Source of the DNA: a virus
Virus record (IMG/VR): IMGVR_UViG_3300031578_000010
Coordinates: 5,428-69,427 of that record
Length of the DNA: 64,000 nt
Direction: 5' to 3' (one strand)
Under the pieces are notes generated by a model. That model was given only the letters and a program-made list of their open reading frames with translations, searched no databases and had not been told where the DNA came from. Position numbers and translations under genes: made by a program. Shown piece after piece: positions 4,724-14,633 of this stretch. Position 1 is the stretch's first letter; every line of letters begins with the position of its first letter.

Positions 4724-5785
4724 TTAGACGCCAATTCCCAGGCGCTTGTCCAGGCCGTCAGCAGCCGTTGTTCCGATTGTCACGGCGCCACCTGTTCCAA
4801 GGGCGGTGCCTGCGTGAGCAGAATCCGCCTTTGAATGTACGGAGGAGATTATTCGGTGCGCCTCGTATTGCGCCCGAATATCGACGACCAGAGGAACGAC
4901 ATCCTCATAGCCCGTCGCACCTGCCACAGTAACGCTAGAAACCGAATCGGCATCGAGGTGCGCGCCAGCGTTAGCGAAATGAATGTTCAGCGTTGCCTTG
5001 AGGGCATTGGCGAGCGCAAAGCATGTGGCCTCATCCGACATGTTGGCCGTTCCTTCTGCGGCGCCAGGATTAGGATGTACGCCCAAGTCGGCCGTGTGCA
5101 GGTTATAGAGCGTTTTGATTCCGTTCAGTTCGGTCGTCAGGATCGCGAGTTCCGTTCCTGCATCTGCCGCAGTTACAGTATTCGGATCCCCGGCGCCGGC
5201 ATGGCAGGAACCAACGACGTAGACGTGGTGGAGATTGTATTCCGCCTTGATGTCGTTGGCGAGCGTAATCACGCTGTCCCAATCGGTCGAAGGCGGAGCC
5301 GAAAGGGCGTTCGCCGCATCAGCGCCACCGTGTACGGCGGGCGCACCAGATACGTCGACGCGATGCGCCTCGTACTGGATAGCCAAATCGTTCACCAGAG
5401 CGACCGCTTCGGCTTCATCCGTTGCGGGATACGTTGCTGTCACGGCATTGGTATCCACGGAACCATGGCAGGTGGTGACGTTGAGCCTGTGCGCAAGGTA
5501 TTGAACGTGCAAGTCGTTCACCAGCGCCAGGATATCCACCGTCGGATCGGTTGCGGCAGGGGCAGTGATCGGGTTTGCAGAATCTGCCTCAACGTGAACT
5601 CCCGATGCCGCCCGATGCAGATTGTATTGTGCTATGAACGCATCGAGCGCAGTCTGCACCGCCGCAACCCGAGTATTCAGCGCGCCCAAATCTCCCACGA
5701 TGGACCGCAAGGCTCGCGCCACGCCTGCGTCCAGGTAACTCCCTCCATCGCCAAGATTCTGAGGGATCTCGAATTCAGCGGTCAT
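4724..5785 (-). CDS. Putative capsid decoration/head fibre protein with about 7 His-containing internal repeats
   Basis: Directly after MCP; repeats of L-x-N-x-[LI]-x-x-x-Y-x-x-H...H-x-x-x-D; SD GGAGG. Confidence 0.6.
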   Translation of the reverse strand: MTAEFEIPQNLGDGGSYLDAGVARALRSIVGDLGALNTRVAAVQTALDAFIAQYNLHRAASGVHVEADSANPITAPAATDPTVDILALVNDLHVQYLAHRLNVTTCHGSVDTNAVTATYPATDEAEAVALVNDLAIQYEAHRVDVSGAPAVHGGADAANALSAPPSTDWDSVITLANDIKAEYNLHHVYVVGSCHAGAGDPNTVTAADAGTELAILTTELNGIKTLYNLHTADLGVHPNPGAAEGTANMSDEATCFALANALKATLNIHFANAGAHLDADSVSSVTVAGATGYEDVVPLVVDIRAQYEAHRIISSVHSKADSAHAGTALGTGGAVTIGTTAADGLDKRLGIGV

Positions 5786-5820: not shown

Positions 5821-5847
5821 GGCCTACTAATTACTATTAGTAGGGCC
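5821..5847 (-). terminator. Hairpin overlapping MCP stop codons (possible attenuator)
   Basis: GGCCTACTAA / TTAGTAGGGCC inverted repeat containing TAA TAG TAA stops; weak U tail. Confidence 0.35.
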
Positions 5848-7123
5848 GGCGACGGATATTGATCGCCTTCACGACCTTATCCAGGCTTTCGACCTGGCTA
5901 TCCGTCTCGTTGATTACGACCGTCTCCCAACGGGCATAATCCTTATTCCATTCCGTGTAAACCTCTGTTTTGTCCAGGTTGCCCCAAATGAAATTGAGCG
6001 GATTTGCAAGCCACGCGATGCAGCCGTCGTTCAGCGTTCCTGCGCCTCCCGCGTCGGTCCCGACATAGGCGGCGACTGCAACTCCCAGCGTTGCCCACCC
6101 GTTTCCTGCGCCGATAGTCAGCGTTGCGCCCGAACCCGACGTCGGGTGCTGGAGATAGAGATGGCCGAAACCGTCATCCTGTGCGATGAGAGTTTCGAGT
6201 CCGGTTGCTGCCTTCAGGAGCGCGGCGACCTCATGGGCAGAGAAAACGCCCTGCGGCAGCGTGCAAGTTACGGCGCCTGCTCCGAGGTTAACGACGAGCG
6301 TGTCGTTCGTTCCTGTCACGACGTTCCACGGCCCCTGCGTCGTTCCGAGAATATGCCCTGCCGTCGCCACCGTGACATTGATGGACTTGCGTGAAGGCAT
6401 GAGAGGAATCGAAATGATCGGAACACCGAAAGGCGCCTCGACGTTCCCCTTGTACGCCCTCTCACCGATCGCGTCGATTCTTTCCGAGTTGATTTCGACC
6501 CAATCGATCTGAAGAGACCGCGGCACGAAGAACCGAAGACCCGTATCGTCCTGATACGAATCCGGGAGCCTCCTGATCATGTTCGCGAAGAGAGTTTTTG
6601 AAATGAACTGGGCGACATGGTCGAGGATATGGGCGCCGTCCGTGATCTTGTCCAACCCGTCGTTGATCAGGAGCAGGTTAGCGATTGGCGTACCTGCGCT
6701 GATGGTATCGTCGCCGTTGATGTGCAGGTTTTCCATATCGGTCGCGATCTGAGCCATCATCGCTTCCGAAACCTGCTGCACAAGGCGCTCGCGGGAAACG
6801 TTCCGGCGAATTGCGCGGCGGGTGATGTGGTAACTGGAAACCATTTCCGCCGTTTCGAGGGAAACGTTGTTGATCAGCGGCGTCCCGGTTTCCGAAATGA
6901 GAGAGTTGTCCGTCAGCCCGACGGTGATCGGCTCACCCACGTGGAGCTTCGGAATTTCAACGCGAGGGTTATCCATGATTTCCGTCCGGCAGAGGGGGAT
7001 AAGCTTCGTGAAACGCCGAACGTAACTCAGGAAAACATCGCGCTGCTTCGCGTTCAGGAGCCCGCCGTTCAGGAAGGAACTTCCTGTAACAGCTTTGTGG
7101 ATCATCTGGTCGTTTCCGTCCAT
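5837..7123 (-). CDS. Major capsid protein (HK97 fold) with about 115-aa insertion domain
   Basis: GGLLNAKQRDVFL...RVEIPKL, QIATDMENLHINGD, PFGVPIISIPLMP, WLANPLNFIWG; start moved to ATG 7123 with SD GAAGGAG; follows scaffold. Confidence 0.9.
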   Translation of the reverse strand: MDGNDQMIHKAVTGSSFLNGGLLNAKQRDVFLSYVRRFTKLIPLCRTEIMDNPRVEIPKLHVGEPITVGLTDNSLISETGTPLINNVSLETAEMVSSYHITRRAIRRNVSRERLVQQVSEAMMAQIATDMENLHINGDDTISAGTPIANLLLINDGLDKITDGAHILDHVAQFISKTLFANMIRRLPDSYQDDTGLRFFVPRSLQIDWVEINSERIDAIGERAYKGNVEAPFGVPIISIPLMPSRKSINVTVATAGHILGTTQGPWNVVTGTNDTLVVNLGAGAVTCTLPQGVFSAHEVAALLKAATGLETLIAQDDGFGHLYLQHPTSGSGATLTIGAGNGWATLGVAVAAYVGTDAGGAGTLNDGCIAWLANPLNFIWGNLDKTEVYTEWNKDYARWETVVINETDSQVESLDKVVKAINIRRRPY

Positions 7124-7189
7124 TTTTAATCTCCTTCTATTTGGAAACACTTTTTTTACAGATAAAGAGGTTCCGCTTTTCTTTGCGGA

Positions 7190-8092
7190 TTAGAAATCCT
7201 TGACAGTGTTGAAGATCGAGAAGAAGGGATTCTCCTCGTTCGTCACATCGGCATCCACCTCTTCGTGCCCGTAATTCCTCTCATACGGCTTCTCATCGCC
7301 GCCCTTCTTTTCCTTGTTGCCCGTTTCGGCTCCGCCCAGAGCCTTTTCGATGGTCTCGACCCGCTTGAAAACGCCACCGAACTCCTCTTTGGCTGCTTCC
7401 TGGAAGAGTTTCACGAGCTCCTTGGCCCGATCGTCCAGCGCCTTCGTCAGCTCCTCCTTGATCTCCTTTGCGATCTCCTCCTTTGCGACGTCCAACGTCT
7501 TTTTCAGTTCTTCTTTCTCCACGGCACCTTCCTCCTTTTTTTCCTCCGCGCCGCCTTTGGGCTCGTCTTTCTTCCGCATCTCGGCTACGGCTGCGGAAAT
7601 ATCCTTCAATTCCTTGGCCATTTCCTCGAATTTTTTCATGACTTTTTCCTCGTCCTTCGCCAGCTTATCGTCGCCGGCAGTCGCTTCGCCCTTTTGGGCT
7701 GCGGAAGGATAACTGGAGAGGATGCCTTCGAGGATTTGAATGATCGCCCGATACTCTCCGGCGACCGCTTTCGGGAGGGGCGCCTTGTCCGCCTTTTCGA
7801 CGCCCTCTTCTCCTGCCTGCTCGCCCTTCTTCTGCATTCCTTCCAGGTTAGAAGCGAGGGAAATCAGGCGTTCAATTGCCGACTGCGTCTTCTTCAACAC
7901 AGCCGCAAGAACCGGAGCGGGAATATCCTGTTTTTCGATTCCCGTTCCTTCCTCGTTTGTACCACCCATGGCTTTTCCTCCATCGCGTTTCACGATAGCG
8001 AACCGTTTTTTGTTCGCGGGAATATCCACCAAGGATACCTCGCGAGGATCTATGTCCTTTAGATCCCACTTATATCCCTCGTCCGTCGCCAT
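7190..8092 (-). CDS. Scaffolding protein with N-terminal prohead-protease fragment (EVSLVDIPAN)
   Basis: E/K/A-rich coiled-coil body; N-terminal LKDIDPREVSLVDIPANKKRF matches the HK97-type protease EVSLVxxPAN motif; SD AGGAGG. Confidence 0.8.
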   Translation of the reverse strand: MATDEGYKWDLKDIDPREVSLVDIPANKKRFAIVKRDGGKAMGGTNEEGTGIEKQDIPAPVLAAVLKKTQSAIERLISLASNLEGMQKKGEQAGEEGVEKADKAPLPKAVAGEYRAIIQILEGILSSYPSAAQKGEATAGDDKLAKDEEKVMKKFEEMAKELKDISAAVAEMRKKDEPKGGAEEKKEEGAVEKEELKKTLDVAKEEIAKEIKEELTKALDDRAKELVKLFQEAAKEEFGGVFKRVETIEKALGGAETGNKEKKGGDEKPYERNYGHEEVDADVTNEENPFFSIFNTVKDF

Positions 8093-8106
8093 TTCTTGCC
8101 TCCTTT

Positions 8107-11100
8107 CTAAGTTTTGCGCCGGACTCGCGTTCCAAAACCTCCAATTGAATAGCCCGTTACTTTCCCATCCTTTATTTCTTTCCAGACATCATCCGAAATA
8201 ACACGAGTTCCAAGTATCCAACTTCCTTTTTTAACCGTTTGAGTCCCTAATAAAAACTCTGTCGGTGCAATATAGCATTCCATTATTCTAAATTTCTTTT
8301 TAAAATCCTCATGTTGATATCCGATCTTCTGATGAAACTCCATAAAGCGATGGCAAGCCTTCGCTATTTCTTCTTCACTACAAACATCCCCTTGAGCATC
8401 AACAGTATTGGGTTCTAATACCACCCCATATACAGTTTTTTGGTCTTTATTAACCTTGAATATAGGCGAAAATATTTCAAACTTTTCCAACTCCTTTGTA
8501 ACAACAGGCTCGCCATAAGATGTGCGCTCAACATGATCAACAGTATCAGGTTTATTCACCTTATTTAATGCCGTGATAATAGGAATAAACCAAGCAACAT
8601 GTGTCTTGCCATCCTTATCATCAACAAATATTTCCGAAGCTGTTATAGTAACTATATCCCCTAACTTGCCTTGAAAATTAGTATTGAATGTCTGACCTAT
8701 TACTACATATAATTTTCCACCAAACTCCTTAACTTCAGTATATTTATCCTTATCGGCCATAGGAATAGGACCGATTCCACCTGTAAAATTCCAAGTTTTA
8801 TCGCTTCCTGCAACTTTGTGTTTATCAAGAATAATAGCGTTGATAATTCGTGGTATTTTATATTTTGCCCAAGATGATGTTCTGCCTCCTAAAGTATAAG
8901 TTGAATTCCAGAGTTTAAGAACCGCCCCTTCAGATCCCGGAAGTAACTTTGCCTTTTCTATCGCATCCCGCAACTCTTTTTCATTATTCGTTGTCCAATA
9001 CTGAGTCGGCTCGAGATGCTTGAATCCCTTTATTTCTTTTTCGACTTCCTGTGCAACTTCATAATATGGTTTCCTTAGCCAATCCTCATTATCCCAATAT
9101 AATATCCCAAAAACCCGACAAACTAAATTTGAATCATCCAAAGGTTTATCAGTCGCTGCCCATCTAACGAGCATTTTCCTATTAACGATATCATTCCTCT
9201 TATCATTTGTGTATTCTATTAATTCTGAATCAAGTATAAAATCTCCTTTTATTCCTTTTACTTCTTCTGAAATAGCCGGCATAGCAAAAGCCCTATCTTC
9301 CTGCTTATCTTCAAAGAATATTATTAACTTTGCATCCTTGCCATCCCCTTTCTTTTCAATTATGGTTCTATATCCATTCCATTTAGGATTGACTATAACC
9401 TTCCCTTTGCCATTAAATATGGTTTTTGCCCATTTTTCAACTAACACATCAACATCAAAAAACTCTCCAATATTAAATCCCCCTTTAGGCTTCAAAGGAA
9501 TAAATTTAACAAAGGGCGCAAACTTGGCCTTCATAGAAGGGAATATTTCTTCTTCGCTGACTGCCTTAGCCTGCGGAGATTTTTCCTTTTGATATTTTAA
9601 TTTCCAGAATTTAGAACCAGTCTCCTCCTGCTCCATTGTCCACAAACCTTTTATATGCTTTAAATCAACCTGAAATTTAATGAACCCCTCAGAATCCTCA
9701 AATATTGTCGCTTTGCCTTCATCGATCGTTTTTATCCACGAATACGTATTTTTTGTGCTATTTCCTAAAGTTCCAGGTTTAACTTCTCCATCAAGACCCA
9801 AGTATTTTTTATCCCTTATCTCCCTTACAGCAATTGATTCTATATTCTTTGTTGGGTCCTCCTCCATAACAAAAGAATCAAGTCCGCCTTTATCTTTAAG
9901 TTTAAAATAAAACGTCCACTCTTCCCTTGATGGCCCCACTCGAACAGTTGTTTGTCCCTTCCACATCTGATATTGAAAACTAAAATCCACCTCCTTTTTC
10001 CTAATATCTCTAACAGATAACATTATCTTTTTCTTCTCGACTCTCTTATATTCATTATTTATTATCTCTATGTTCTCTTCAGTAAAATATTTCTCAGAAA
10101 CTAAGGCATCTCGGATTTCCATTGCCTTAGCCCCCTTGCTTTCCCAAAAACGAAACTCCTTTGGCGTTTGTTGCATTAAAGACAATGGCATAGCAGAAAC
10201 GCCATTTGGAGGCATACTTTTAGTTTTAACTGATCTTTTATTAATGACGGATGGCAAAAAAGTCTTAGAAATAAACCCACGCCAAAACGTAGGGTTCTTT
10301 CCTGCTCTTTCATATCCTTCAGTTGATAATAACCTTAAATGTAGAGAACCGTTAAAATATTTCCCATTCGTAAGAAAATATTCATGATAATACGGCTTCT
10401 GAATTCCCCACTCTACACAATATTTTTTAGGATCCTCAATTATAACGAATATTCCAGGCTCATTAGCCGTCGCCCCAACTTCTCCGGGTTTCACAACTCC
10501 CTCGACGGCAATCCAATCAATAGGCTCCGGTTTCTTTGGCGTACACTGTAAACCTTTAGGAGCAAGAATAGGTTTTAAAAATTCGTTTCCGTTTCCCATA
10601 TCATAATTAGCAATTATCTTTCTGCCATCTGCAACAGTATTAATATCTTTAATCTTGCCGGGATATTGAAAGAATAAGGTCCAACCTATTAATTCCTTTG
10701 TGCCAATATCCATCCTTAAATCAGCATGAACAGTATCGCCTCGAAAATGTAGCTGGACTACTGCGCGTCTTTTTCCTGTTTCTTTAGGATAAAACATTAA
10801 TTCCGATTGCTTAATTATTCGATCATATATTTCAATATATAGAGGGTCTTCCTGTAACCCCTCTTCTGTTTCAATATAATCATTATCGTTAAATGATTCT
10901 CCCATTTTCACAACAGATAAATCATTATTAACCTGGAATAATAAATCACCCAAAGGTATATTATTAGTAAAGGGACCGTCGAAATCGTCAGACATTACGC
11001 TAATTCTTTTGCTTAATTCCTTCGGCAGCATCCTTCCAAGTCTAAACTCTACAACTTTCAACATCCCTGCTGGAATATCCCCTTTAACTAAAAAATCAAT

Positions 11101-11532
11101 ATCTCCTTCGGTTTCGCCATTATTAACCAACCCTCCCGTTAAATAAACAAAAGGCTGCCTTATCTTAAAAGATTTCAAGAGGGGCAGGACTTCGGATAGT
11201 TGTATTTTAGCCCCTATTTTATTTCCAGAAGAACTGATAGGCGCTAACTCTATAACCTCCTTTTTTATTTCCTCTTCCTCTGCCTTCTTCTGCGGTAATT
11301 TTCCAGGAAGAGAAGAGGCGTGTTTAAATCCTCGCGCTTTCATTTCGGCAACAACTAATTCATGGGCATTCCAGATATCCTCCAAGGAATAGACTAAATC
11401 CTTAGGCGACTTCCTTTTTAATGTCCAAAGGCTATGAAGGTGGCGATGTAGGTTGAGCAGAGCAGAGTCCTTTTCTTCCTTCAAGGACTTCACATTTATT
11501 TCAGCTATACTAAGTTTAATTAATGGTTCCAT
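8107..11532 (-). CDS. Multidomain polyprotein: nucleotidyltransferase-like + 2x LigD-type 3'-phosphoesterase + ATP-dependent ligase/OB + XkdF-like prohead protease
   Basis: GGLVNNGETEGDID (aa133-146); VVQLHFRGDTVHADLR (aa258-273); KWNGYR, ILDSE, EGAVLK, GRTSSWAKYK (aa717-892); VYGVVLEPNTVDAQGD...QHE...WKEIKDGKVTGYSIGG (aa1034-1132); located between MuF and scaffold. Confidence 0.85.
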   Translation of the reverse strand: MEPLIKLSIAEINVKSLKEEKDSALLNLHRHLHSLWTLKRKSPKDLVYSLEDIWNAHELVVAEMKARGFKHASSLPGKLPQKKAEEEEIKKEVIELAPISSSGNKIGAKIQLSEVLPLLKSFKIRQPFVYLTGGLVNNGETEGDIDFLVKGDIPAGMLKVVEFRLGRMLPKELSKRISVMSDDFDGPFTNNIPLGDLLFQVNNDLSVVKMGESFNDNDYIETEEGLQEDPLYIEIYDRIIKQSELMFYPKETGKRRAVVQLHFRGDTVHADLRMDIGTKELIGWTLFFQYPGKIKDINTVADGRKIIANYDMGNGNEFLKPILAPKGLQCTPKKPEPIDWIAVEGVVKPGEVGATANEPGIFVIIEDPKKYCVEWGIQKPYYHEYFLTNGKYFNGSLHLRLLSTEGYERAGKNPTFWRGFISKTFLPSVINKRSVKTKSMPPNGVSAMPLSLMQQTPKEFRFWESKGAKAMEIRDALVSEKYFTEENIEIINNEYKRVEKKKIMLSVRDIRKKEVDFSFQYQMWKGQTTVRVGPSREEWTFYFKLKDKGGLDSFVMEEDPTKNIESIAVREIRDKKYLGLDGEVKPGTLGNSTKNTYSWIKTIDEGKATIFEDSEGFIKFQVDLKHIKGLWTMEQEETGSKFWKLKYQKEKSPQAKAVSEEEIFPSMKAKFAPFVKFIPLKPKGGFNIGEFFDVDVLVEKWAKTIFNGKGKVIVNPKWNGYRTIIEKKGDGKDAKLIIFFEDKQEDRAFAMPAISEEVKGIKGDFILDSELIEYTNDKRNDIVNRKMLVRWAATDKPLDDSNLVCRVFGILYWDNEDWLRKPYYEVAQEVEKEIKGFKHLEPTQYWTTNNEKELRDAIEKAKLLPGSEGAVLKLWNSTYTLGGRTSSWAKYKIPRIINAIILDKHKVAGSDKTWNFTGGIGPIPMADKDKYTEVKEFGGKLYVVIGQTFNTNFQGKLGDIVTITASEIFVDDKDGKTHVAWFIPIITALNKVNKPDTVDHVERTSYGEPVVTKELEKFEIFSPIFKVNKDQKTVYGVVLEPNTVDAQGDVCSEEEIAKACHRFMEFHQKIGYQHEDFKKKFRIMECYIAPTEFLLGTQTVKKGSWILGTRVISDDVWKEIKDGKVTGYSIGGFGTRVRRKT

Positions 11533-11896: not shown

Positions 11897-13093
11897 TTAA
11901 ACCCCTTGGGCCTCTTCCCAATCTTGTATTTTGACATCTTCTTCTGAAATAACGACTGAAGACCTGCAATGCGCGTGAAAAGGAGGCAGCGCCGGAGGAT
12001 TTCCTCCTCGCGGGGCCGTCTCAACCACTTCCTGAGATGTTATTTTCTTTGCAGGTTTAAACCCCTTATCCGTTGCCTTAAATGTTGAATTAGGAAGATA
12101 TATTTTTTCGCCTTTAGGCCCTCCATAGAACAAGGCGGGTTTCCCTTGCTCGGCTCTTACAGAATCAAAATTTAACCAAGGACGCAAAGCCTTAAAGGCA
12201 TTTATATCACTATCAGATCTTGAATCCGGAATGCCATTTTCTTGGATATCTTTGACTATTTTCCTAGCCAATTCAACTTCAAAAACCATCCCATCCATTG
12301 CTTCGCATATCTCACTCGTTCTTTCGTCCATCACTGCTATAATTTCATATTTTCTAATTCTTGCCTCTTCAAATGCTGTAACCTGAGCAAAATTTCTTGC
12401 TCTATTGATAACATCGCTTGCTAATATGCTTAAATAAGTATTTCCTCTCTGTGCAAGAACAGAAGGAAGTTCTTCTCGCATCAAAGAAGCTAAAGCGCTT
12501 TTTGGCAAATTCTCTTGAACTATCCGAGACGCCAAAGTATTAACAGAGCCTATTAAAGTTTTATCGTATATTCCACTTATAAAAAAGTTATTATTATTGT
12601 TTAAAATGTTTATTACGGCCTTATCTTGTTGAGTCAATCCCGCCTTTATAGATCGTTTTAATTTCTTAGCAGCAAGGGCTACAACCTTTTTGGTTGCCAC
12701 TATCTGGTTTTTTAAAGCCTGTTTAATAGACTTTGTTGCCTGCAAAGCAACAGATGGGCCAAGTTCCTTTTTCAATGTATTATGTAATTTGTTGAGGGCT
12801 TTCTCATTTATCCTATAATTTCCAGGTTTGCCAGATATTCCATTCTTAATAAAGGAAGCAATAGCCGATCCACTTTTGACTTTAGTTTTTATTTTAAAAG
12901 CAAAAGCGCTTCGCATAGCCTTAAATGCTTTTAATTCATTTACACCCGGATGATCCGGGCCGGTGCCTATTGTTATCCCGAATCCTTGTTTCCTTACTCC
13001 GCCCAGCCTGATAATTATTTCCTGAACTATCTTCTGACTTCTTATCAGGTTTTCAAGCGAAGTATTCTTAAATATTTTATATTTCAAGGTCAT
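11897..13093 (-). CDS. MuF / SPP1 gp7-like minor head (head morphogenesis) protein
   Basis: YEIIAVMDERTSEICEAMDG and PPALPPFHAHCRS motifs; follows portal; start moved to ATG 13093 (SD GGGGAG). Confidence 0.9.
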   Translation of the reverse strand: MTLKYKIFKNTSLENLIRSQKIVQEIIIRLGGVRKQGFGITIGTGPDHPGVNELKAFKAMRSAFAFKIKTKVKSGSAIASFIKNGISGKPGNYRINEKALNKLHNTLKKELGPSVALQATKSIKQALKNQIVATKKVVALAAKKLKRSIKAGLTQQDKAVINILNNNNNFFISGIYDKTLIGSVNTLASRIVQENLPKSALASLMREELPSVLAQRGNTYLSILASDVINRARNFAQVTAFEEARIRKYEIIAVMDERTSEICEAMDGMVFEVELARKIVKDIQENGIPDSRSDSDINAFKALRPWLNFDSVRAEQGKPALFYGGPKGEKIYLPNSTFKATDKGFKPAKKITSQEVVETAPRGGNPPALPPFHAHCRSSVVISEEDVKIQDWEEAQGV

Positions 13094-14633
13094 AGAGACT
13101 CTCCCCAATATCCTGCCTTTCGCCGATAGCCTTTTCAAGAGTATTGTTTAAACTCATGAGGGAATCTATTATAGAAGAATCCTTTGCTCTATCCGCAGGA
13201 ACTTTCATTCCTTGCATAACCAGAGGCAACGGCATATCCGCCCAATTTTCTGTAAATCTTGGCTTGCCTAAATAATCTCGGATATCGTTAGGAGTTATCC
13301 CTCCTGTCCTTTCCATTTTCTTATATATCGTAGCCAATCCTTCGAAGTCTGTTTTCTTCGGTCGAACCAATTTAAGCCATAATATTTTAATTCCCATAGC
13401 CCTCATCAGTGTTTTATTTAATATAAATTCTATTTCAGCAATATCCGGTTCAAAAGTCTGGTCATTCGTTATTGATCTTCCTACGCTTCCTCCTGCCCGC
13501 GTGATATCAGAAGCAAAGAAAACAGGATGTAACCCGAATACCTCCGATATTTCCCCATCATTTCTATCCTGATACTTTAAATAACCTGCATCCTCAGCAA
13601 TGCCAACAGTAAGTTTATGGAACTCTATTTTGACATCTTCTTTTTCTGTCATTGACCCTTCGCGGGTTCCCGCCTGAATAATCATTATTCTGCCGGTATT
13701 TTTTGTTCCCTTTCCTTTTCGTTCCAGGAATTCTTTTATATCTTCTCGGCTTTCCTTCGATAGCCTATATGGACCGCTCACCACTATTGCAATTCTTGGA
13801 GTTGCATCATTCTCAAAGAATGTAGAATTTCTTTCTCCCGCAAATCTGCTGCCCGCAATAGCTGGCGCAGTTGATAGATGTCTCGGAATTCCATAAGATG
13901 ATTCCCTATATCCTGCAACTTTAAAATGTATTAATTCCCGGGCTATTAGTTCTGGCTTAGTTAATCCCGAGGTTTTAATTCCTGTATTTTTATCTACAAC
14001 ATCTTTATCGCCCCAATCCTTAAAATGAGTTACCTTCCTATTTTTATCTATTGCAACAAACCCGCCTTTCTTCTTTATCCTGACCGTTTGTCCGACAATT
14101 CGTTCAAGACCAATAGGAAGATAGTCGCCATCCTTTGTTGTTTTAGTTAAAGACCTATGAACAGCGAGATAGCCATTTCCTATAACTTCTCGATCGCCGA
14201 TTACTTCTTTAAGAATAACTGAAAAAGGCATAGTAGGATGAGGATCATCAAGGAAATCTTCTATTAACTGTGACTCATCCTCGATATTCCGTTTAAGTTC
14301 TTCCAGTTGTTTCTTTTCATCCTCCGTCATTTCTTTTCTTGAACGTTCTATAATCCTTTTATATCTCTTTTTTGGTTCTAATTCATAACCAAGGCCAGCA
14401 GCATTAGTTGCACGTATTTGAACACAAGCAGCCAACCTTGTGGATATTTCAGGAGCAATAGCCCAATCATCTATTGAGAAGGGCGGTTTCTCTAATTCCA
14501 TTCCGCCCAACGAATAGAAGGTAACTGAAACAGAATTCCCGCCATCAAGGCGCTTTCCAAGCGGCGCGCCTTTCTGCAAAGGCTCGTCAATAAAAACATC
14601 CACTTCGATAGGGCTTTGTTTTTTCTTTACCAT
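13077..14633 (-). CDS. Portal protein (PBSX/HK97-type)
   Basis: 518 aa; RELIHFK...YGIPRHL, NSTFFENDATP, ISEVFGLHPVF, ITPNDIRDYLG. Confidence 0.92.
   Translation of the reverse strand: MVKKKQSPIEVDVFIDEPLQKGAPLGKRLDGGNSVSVTFYSLGGMELEKPPFSIDDWAIAPEISTRLAACVQIRATNAAGLGYELEPKKRYKRIIERSRKEMTEDEKKQLEELKRNIEDESQLIEDFLDDPHPTMPFSVILKEVIGDREVIGNGYLAVHRSLTKTTKDGDYLPIGLERIVGQTVRIKKKGGFVAIDKNRKVTHFKDWGDKDVVDKNTGIKTSGLTKPELIARELIHFKVAGYRESSYGIPRHLSTAPAIAGSRFAGERNSTFFENDATPRIAIVVSGPYRLSKESREDIKEFLERKGKGTKNTGRIMIIQAGTREGSMTEKEDVKIEFHKLTVGIAEDAGYLKYQDRNDGEISEVFGLHPVFFASDITRAGGSVGRSITNDQTFEPDIAEIEFILNKTLMRAMGIKILWLKLVRPKKTDFEGLATIYKKMERTGGITPNDIRDYLGKPRFTENWADMPLPLVMQGMKVPADRAKDSSIIDSLMSLNNTLEKAIGERQDIGESLYDLEI

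Follow-up and report, generated by a model that had tools for sequence, protein, structure and literature searches.

How does a phage carry its protease into the prohead when the protease domain closes one gene and a conserved strand motif of the same module opens the next? The question is raised by the head module of a virus catalogued as IMG/VR record IMGVR_UViG_3300031578_000010 (90,431 base pairs, rated complete by CheckV), of which we analysed positions 5,428 to 69,427, a stretch of 64,000 nucleotides hereafter called the window. Prohead proteases must get inside the procapsid yet remain inactive as long as the shell is incomplete. Known solutions are a covalent join of protease and scaffold sequence (herpesvirus UL26/UL26.5, lambda C/Nu3 and XkdF), by which the protease is carried into the procapsid, or a capsid-binding tail (HK97). 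In the window, an XkdF-type protease domain ends a large polyprotein that also contains a DNA ligase domain, and the strand motif is found at the N-terminus of the scaffold-like protein encoded next. The same division recurs in other phages, which suggests, from sequence comparison, a role of the scaffold in completing or tethering the protease.

Protease domain and strand motif lie on two polypeptides

The C-terminal part of the polyprotein (residues 1024-1136) matched Pfam Peptidase_S78_2 (XkdF, PF14550) over positions 5-124 of the 126 in the profile, scoring 113.6 bits (118.3 bits in the genome search) where the cut-off is 24. Membership of this family is supported by this score above the gathering threshold and by His1074 and Ser1129, which are invariant in an alignment of 132 sequences (A3). 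The polyprotein ends 12 residues past the Ser of GYSIGG with ...GYSIGGFGTRVRRKT and TAG, and the stop is followed by a 14-nucleotide gap, AAAGGAGGCAAGAA, with a consensus Shine-Dalgarno (SD) sequence, and then by the ATG of the scaffold gene. The N-terminus of the scaffold, MATDEGYKWDLKDIDPREVSLVDIPANKKRF, contains the strand motif EVSLVDIPANKKRF, while past residue ~60 the protein is rich in E, K and A. An initial annotation of this locus had described the stop, the 14-nucleotide gap, the strong SD and the new open reading frame (ORF) with the motif, and the ORFs and their translations proved it right in every detail.

PHROG 3017 ("head maturation protease", 402 positions) aligned with both proteins, the polyprotein C-terminus corresponding to its positions 34-157 and scaffold residues 10-37 to its positions 4-31. 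Furthermore, a hidden Markov model (HMM) of the 29-residue motif, run on all six frames of the window, found the scaffold N-terminus as its sole significant match (E 1e-17) and nothing in the polyprotein, which does not hold in its own chain the motif and scaffold tail of XkdF proper. Since the motif HMM matches only the scaffold N-terminus in the window, the split pattern is real and far above chance, and the protease domain and the ExSxV..AN strand sit on two polypeptides, as had been proposed. Likewise, the His, Ser and ExSxV..PA strand that HK97 gp4 holds in a single polypeptide are here interrupted by a stop codon, an SD sequence and an ATG between the Ser motif and the strand. When the polyprotein tail and the scaffold N-terminus are joined virtually, Ser and Glu18 are 30 residues apart. 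Of the Pfam families, only the HK97-type S78 family PF04586 touched the scaffold N-terminus, over positions 119-155 of its 165 and at 12.4-14.4 bits, below the cut-off of 21 (E 0.007-0.07), and the protease domain gave no match to it at E <= 0.1.

The two genes could nevertheless yield one protein through a programmed -1 frameshift or read-through producing a polyprotein-scaffold fusion, and the scaffold frame is indeed the -1 frame, with no stop in the 32 codons upstream of the ATG (a 332-residue open frame). However, the last 45 codons of the polyprotein contain no slippery heptamer of the type X XXY YYZ, the scaffold has a consensus SD and ATG of its own, and related loci show all three relative frames, varied stops and sometimes an intervening gene. 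Because the relative frames vary among loci, a conserved frameshift is ruled out, and we rejected this explanation as very improbable.

The split recurs in independent loci

In eleven IMG/VR loci, seven of them distinct (L005, L006, L007, L009, L012, L013 and L015), protease and motif were split in all. The protease ORF (229-1277 residues) ends 8-20 residues past the Ser motif with TAA, TAG or TGA, and a later ORF with its own start, in frame 0, +1 or +2, has an N-terminus of the form L.D[IL]...E[VI]SLV..[AG]AN; the protease domain of L006 is 53% identical to that of the window. Three further contigs with the split were reached via library representatives, namely L018, the closest relative of the window locus, L020, where a 128-residue stand-alone protease is followed by a methyltransferase gene and then by the scaffold, and L021, where a 1425-residue protein with NUDIX, ligase and protease domains is split from the scaffold. 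The split was also found in the cultured phages vB_PseuGesM_254, Curvibacter phage P26059A and PAK_P1, giving 13 independent loci (ten distinct metagenomic ones and three cultured phages), three of which have an intervening gene. The genes between protease and scaffold are a GIY-YIG endonuclease (P26059A, L001 4431-5036), a methyltransferase (L020 3390-3989) and a 275-residue ORF (L015 5403-6230). As genes are inserted between the halves, translational coupling of the two is not required.

In an exhaustive library search, 6163 representatives matched the protease domain (E <= 0.001). Of the best 150, 148 lack the motif in cis and end at the equivalent point, the domain lies at the extreme C-terminus after an N-terminal extension ranging from none to ~1300 residues, and the tail past Ser measures 5-29 residues in 125 of the 128 scorable proteins. 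The PAK_P1-type scaffold's N-terminal region has relatives in 457 phage records, a figure that counts this region, the split having been individually confirmed only in the loci named above. One Vequintavirus has a similar gene pair with a degenerate motif, which the motif HMM did not detect. The whole scaffold of the window gave no tblastn match in the phage collection and none by pattern scan of IMG/VR, as the scaffold body diverges too fast; only six close scaffold homologues were found, and the N-terminal motif is kept in all of P0196-P0200.

Natural single-chain forms of the module exist (P0061 and P0159, see below), and the junction could accordingly come from a mistake in sequencing or assembly, or from a mutation that recently turned a single-chain protease-scaffold gene into a pseudogene. 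Against this, the split is kept with varied frames and stops in 13 independent loci, three of them in cultured phages that were sequenced separately, the library representatives end at the equivalent point, and the junction in the window bears a proper SD and ATG. The sequencing error that the initial annotation had itself considered is thereby excluded, and an error or fresh mutation of any kind is scarcely credible. Judged from sequence conservation, the gene-level split of this assemblin-fold prohead protease is genuine and ancient. The protease family is a known one and its genes are already annotated in many genomes, often wrongly; our literature search found no description of the split or of the strand motif.

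Three architectures of the module

Apart from the split form, in which the protease is C-terminal on one protein and the motif opens the next, the module occurs in two single-chain forms. In the first, the HK97 order, the protease is followed by a linker of ~30 residues, the motif and the scaffold tail. This order was seen in P0061 (Ser177, motif at 211) and P0159 (545 residues, motif at 376), where the distance from Ser to the motif is about 34 residues vs 30 in the window with the two termini summed. In the second form, the chain is permuted, with the motif at residues ~9-25, followed by the protease and the scaffold tail, as in the XkdF-like protein P0166 of the Bacillus cereus group, the protein of Lactococcus phage 50901 and the P0160-P0178 group. 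The circular permutation of XkdF assumed in the initial annotation was thus borne out, as the Bacillus XkdF-like proteins bear the strand at their N-terminus.

In a quick maximum-likelihood tree, which is unrooted, of modest support and in which most rows are labelled "split" from architecture alone, the permuted forms made up one cluster (Shimodaira-Hasegawa-like approximate likelihood ratio test, 89), and each HK97-order fusion stood beside a different split-type protein. This suggests, as a hint only, several changes of architecture. A further library representative, P0043 (592 residues), matches the protease domain twice (~130-293 and 453-576), and a motif-like segment lies between the two matches at 299-324; it may be a tandem in which a fused unit precedes a split-type unit.

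Predicted position of the strand in the fold

To place the strand, we used AlphaFold2 (AF2) models of two relatives, the natural permuted P0166 (residues 1-175) and the L006 pair read through two in-frame TGA codons, the alignment for the latter (A7) being built with trimmed scaffold fragments. The P0166 model has a mean predicted local distance difference test (pLDDT) score of 80.9, with the N-terminal strand (residues 2-16) at about 91 and 79, a disordered linker (20-34) between strand and core, and a core above 90. The L006 model (193 residues, of which the protease part makes up 142) has a mean pLDDT of 86.4, and in it the scaffold-derived strand (147-164) forms a hairpin with the Ser strand (130-144) at pLDDT 91-97.

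A sequence search of the PDB gave no match, and Foldseek found no PDB entry at E <= 0.001, 5jbl having a template modelling (TM) score of about 0.45; the models were therefore compared with 48,161 PDB chains by VIA-align. Both models showed an assemblin/gp21-like fold. The T4 gp21 protease (5jbl_A) aligned with P0166 at Z 10.8 (root-mean-square deviation (rmsd) 3.2, 119 residues aligned, model 32-162 vs chain 2-153) and with L006 at Z 10.9 (rmsd 2.8, 122 aligned, model 29-166 vs chain 25-172). For the varicella-zoster virus (VZV) protease (1vzv_A), the values were Z 5.6, rmsd 2.6 and 89 aligned residues with P0166, and Z 8.9, rmsd 3.1 and 114 with L006; for the human cytomegalovirus (HCMV) protease (8j3s_A), Z 3.9, rmsd 2.7 and 89 with P0166, and Z 7.2, rmsd 3.3 and 117 with L006. 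The Kaposi's sarcoma-associated herpesvirus (KSHV) protease (1fl1_A) was matched by L006 (Z 5.1, rmsd 3.0, 93 aligned) and not listed for P0166. Thus, with the scaffold strand placed after the Ser strand the match to gp21 is ~19 residues longer, reaching chain residue 172 only when this strand is present, and the similarity to assemblins is clearly increased. Moreover, BFVD models carrying the name of an HK97-family or COG3740 prohead protease aligned with 170-190 columns of the L006 model, more than its protease part contains. In these comparisons, the strand takes the place of the one following the Ser strand in T4 gp21 and the herpesvirus assemblins, where the third catalytic residue resides.

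The same data bear on a different explanation, namely that the protease domain is complete alone and that the first residues of the scaffold, instead of joining the fold, lie in the active-site cleft as a substrate-like or inhibitory peptide, serving as a cleavage site or mimicking a pro-peptide. Scaffolds are normal substrates of prohead proteases, and the PF14550 profile is nearly all covered by the polyprotein. In addition, the motif is N-terminal in the permuted relatives, and in the structure of pre-active T4 gp21 the catalytic centre is blocked by an N-terminal segment (PMC9958956). However, the strand in HK97 order raises the assemblin Z scores (from 5.6 to 8.9 and from 3.9 to 7.2), as expected of a fold element, and gives longer sequential alignments with gp21 and with the HK97-family models, and in the natural permuted P0166 the strand is packed confidently. 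We therefore consider a peptide of this kind quite unlikely.

Proposed role of the scaffold N-terminus

Taking the models and the recurrence of the split together, we favour, as a probable reading, completion of the protease in trans by the scaffold N-terminus, which would thereby also tether the protease with its ligase cargo. The polyprotein would supply an XkdF-type core with His1074 and Ser1129 in a chain that ends one short strand past Ser, and the first ~35 residues of the scaffold would supply the next β-strand of the protease fold, pairing in trans with the Ser-bearing strand. The protease and its covalently attached cargo (the DNA ligase or other domains) would thereby be held to the scaffold without a covalent bond and carried by it into the prohead; digestion of the scaffold by the protease would follow there, probably with release of the cargo. 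The split, its conservation, the cis forms of the strand and its predicted place in the fold come from the data, and trans binding, co-packaging and any effect on activity are inferences from them. If the reading is true, a gene boundary inside a protease fold would represent a third solution to prohead entry, a non-covalent joint made by strand complementation, and would account for the head entry of the diverse enzymes fused ahead of the protease (DNA ligase, NUDIX, methyltransferases). Among cultured phages, PAK_P1, in which the split was individually confirmed, and the KPP10-type phages carry it, so that direct testing is possible.

Several observations weigh against this reading. The L006 chain is artificial, and its short covalent linker favours a hairpin. 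Because the polyprotein alone covers positions 5-124 of the 126 in PF14550, the protease domain may need no strand to be stable and active. Similarity to the S78 profile of HK97-type proteases stayed at 12-14 bits vs a cut-off of 21 and was seen in one of 13 related scaffolds; the assignment to PF04586 was dropped for these reasons and the match kept as a lead, not as membership. The equivalence of Glu18 with the Asp of gp21-type enzymes comes solely from the end points of the alignment ranges (model 166 vs gp21 172) and from spacing. Finally, among 47 distinct motifs the Glu position is H in 16, E in 14, Y in 10, A in two, R in one and a gap in four.

The last two points concern the possibility that the strand is the missing catalytic element, with Glu18 as its active residue, so that the enzyme is inactive until the halves meet and the split acts as an activation switch tied to assembly. 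In gp21-type proteases, the triad is His-Ser-Asp with Asp 25 residues past Ser (gp245 S153/D178, PMC5694885), and in T4 gp21 the catalytic residues are H85/S140 (PMC12991175). From spacing and the alignment end points, the Glu of EVSLV would lie at or next to the position of the third triad residue in gp21, whose chain residue 172 is reached only with the scaffold strand in the model. The spacing from Ser is similar (30 residues vs 25), Glu18 is invariant in the 13 scaffolds of the window's clade and the position is His in other clades; E or H, found in 30 of the 47 distinct motifs, could be the third triad member, while Y, A and R could not. However, the latter three or a gap occupy the position in 17 of the 47, including both natural HK97-order fusions, P0061 and P0159, which have Ala. 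The best-kept positions of the motif lie elsewhere (V+4 and A+8 in 47/47, N+9 and F+13 in 45, S+2 in 44). As the Glu position is often Y, A, R or a gap across the family, the strand appears to be primarily structural. Thus Glu18 may be the third triad residue in the window's clade, while a catalytic Glu is, on the motifs compared, not a family-wide feature.

A switch meets further objections. As neighbouring genes they are probably co-translated, and their products could pair once made, before assembly, and relatives with the strand in cis are unable to use the split as a switch. Since in these natural relatives the strand is a fixed part of the protease chain, control in the XkdF-type family does not need the split, and the cis-strand relatives must be controlled by some other means. 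The "assembly-gated activation switch" of the initial annotation, with completion of the enzyme confined to the prohead, goes further than this evidence and stands as a prediction, and we regard a catalytic strand acting as a switch as unlikely. In its fullest form, the scheme would be a natural two-component enzyme of this large phage clade, with His and Ser on the protein that bears the cargo and with the scaffold supplying the third member of the triad (Glu here, His in other clades), in which activity, prohead targeting and the packaging of enzymes (DNA ligase, NUDIX, methyltransferases) all hang on a single strand-complementation contact; this we put forward as a doubtful, tentative possibility.

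Comparison with known systems

The closest known system is that of the XkdF-like proteins (PBSX XkdF, PF14550, PHROG 3017), which share with the window the protease core (34-49% identity, invariant His and Ser) and the 29-residue strand motif followed by a presumably helical scaffold tail. They differ in that motif, protease and tail form one chain, whereas in the window the protease ends a 1141-residue multi-enzyme protein, and motif and tail are a separate gene. HK97 gp4 (MEROPS S78, PF04586, COG3740) has the same order of His, Ser and ExSxV..PA strand, but holds the strand in the same chain, and the window's match to its family is under the cut-off. To our knowledge, HK97 has no separate scaffold protein, the delta domain of the capsid protein serving in its place.

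T4 gp21 (MEROPS S77, PDB 5JBL) is the best solved structural match to the models of the relatives, and its His-to-Ser spacing of 55 residues is the same as in the window. It differs in sequence (about 13% identity) and in being a single chain that itself contains the third triad residue; its activation takes place by self-cleavage of the N-terminal segment (PMC9958956). The herpesvirus assemblins share their fold with the L006 model (VZV Z 8.9, HCMV Z 7.2). In herpesvirus UL26/UL26.5 and lambda C/Nu3, the link of protease and scaffold is covalent and comes from in-frame nested genes, whereas in the window it would be a non-covalent strand complementation across a gene boundary.

Fused domains and annotation

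The domains ahead of the protease vary. DNA ligase is present in the window, methyltransferase in L012, NUDIX and methyltransferase in L013, methyltransferase and ligase in L015, and NUDIX and ligase in L021, while other relatives are proteases of 128-150 residues with no fused domain. On its domain content, the variable fused region looks like a general device by which enzymes are loaded into phage heads. In several relatives, namely L005 (1179-2426), L018 (3001-3933) and P0159, the protease follows a conserved N-terminal domain that begins MPFPNEHAARL and matches nothing in Pfam.

In several GenBank phage records, the label "DNA methyltransferase" is attached to XkdF-type proteases such as PAK_P1 gene 3 (156 residues, L022 1016-1486) and the protein of Lactococcus phage 50901 (L002 2878-3930), and PHROG 1530 also has this name. 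The label probably spread from fusion proteins. The scaffolds are annotated as "hypothetical" or "decoration" proteins.

Layout of the head module

All genes of the head-module region lie on the minus strand, in the order portal, Mu F-like minor head protein, 104-residue ORF, polyprotein, scaffold and capsid-like protein (Table 1). The position of the scaffold gene between protease and capsid gene is matched in L005, L018 and L021, and a capsid-like gene downstream of the scaffold is common to L005 and L018.

Table 1. Features of the head module and of the protease-scaffold junction, with positions in the window.
Feature	Position	Strand	Evidence
Head-module polyprotein, 1141 aa (N-terminal cargo region, ATP-dependent DNA ligase domain, C-terminal protease domain)	8107..11532	-	ORF and translation
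ATP-dependent DNA ligase adenylation domain, polyprotein aa 703-892	8857..9426	-	Pfam DNA_ligase_A_M, PF01068, 62.3 bits, E 6.7e-17
XkdF-type (S78_2) protease domain, polyprotein aa 1016-1139, extreme C-terminus	8116..8487	-	PF14550 and phrog_3017
His1074 codon, invariant presumed catalytic His	8311..8313	-	Invariant column, 132-sequence alignment A3
Ser1129 codon (GYSIGG), invariant presumed catalytic Ser, 12 residues before stop	8146..8148	-	Invariant column, A3
Polyprotein stop TAG	8107..8109	-	Sequence
Consensus Shine-Dalgarno AAAGGAGG of the scaffold gene, 6 nucleotides upstream of ATG	8099..8106	-	Sequence
Scaffold-like protein, 300 aa, -1 frame vs polyprotein	7190..8092	-	ORF; between protease and capsid-like gene
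Scaffold start codon ATG	8090..8092	-	Sequence
Strand motif L.DI...EVSLVD..ANKK.F..VK, scaffold aa 9-37	7982..8068	-	Motif HMM, phrog_3017; PF04586 weak
Scaffold Glu18 codon, candidate third-triad equivalent of gp21-type proteases	8039..8041	-	Placement inferred from fold-alignment end points
Capsid-like structural protein, downstream of scaffold	5837..7150	-	phrog_1623 "virion structural protein", E 1e-47
Mu F-like minor head protein	11897..13138	-	PF04233, phrog_115
Portal protein	13077..14633	-	PF04860 at 87.8 bits; phrog_12

Counted from their first start codons, the portal and Mu F-like ORFs overlap by 62 nucleotides (13077-13138, minus strand), and the Mu F-like gene may have its true start further downstream.

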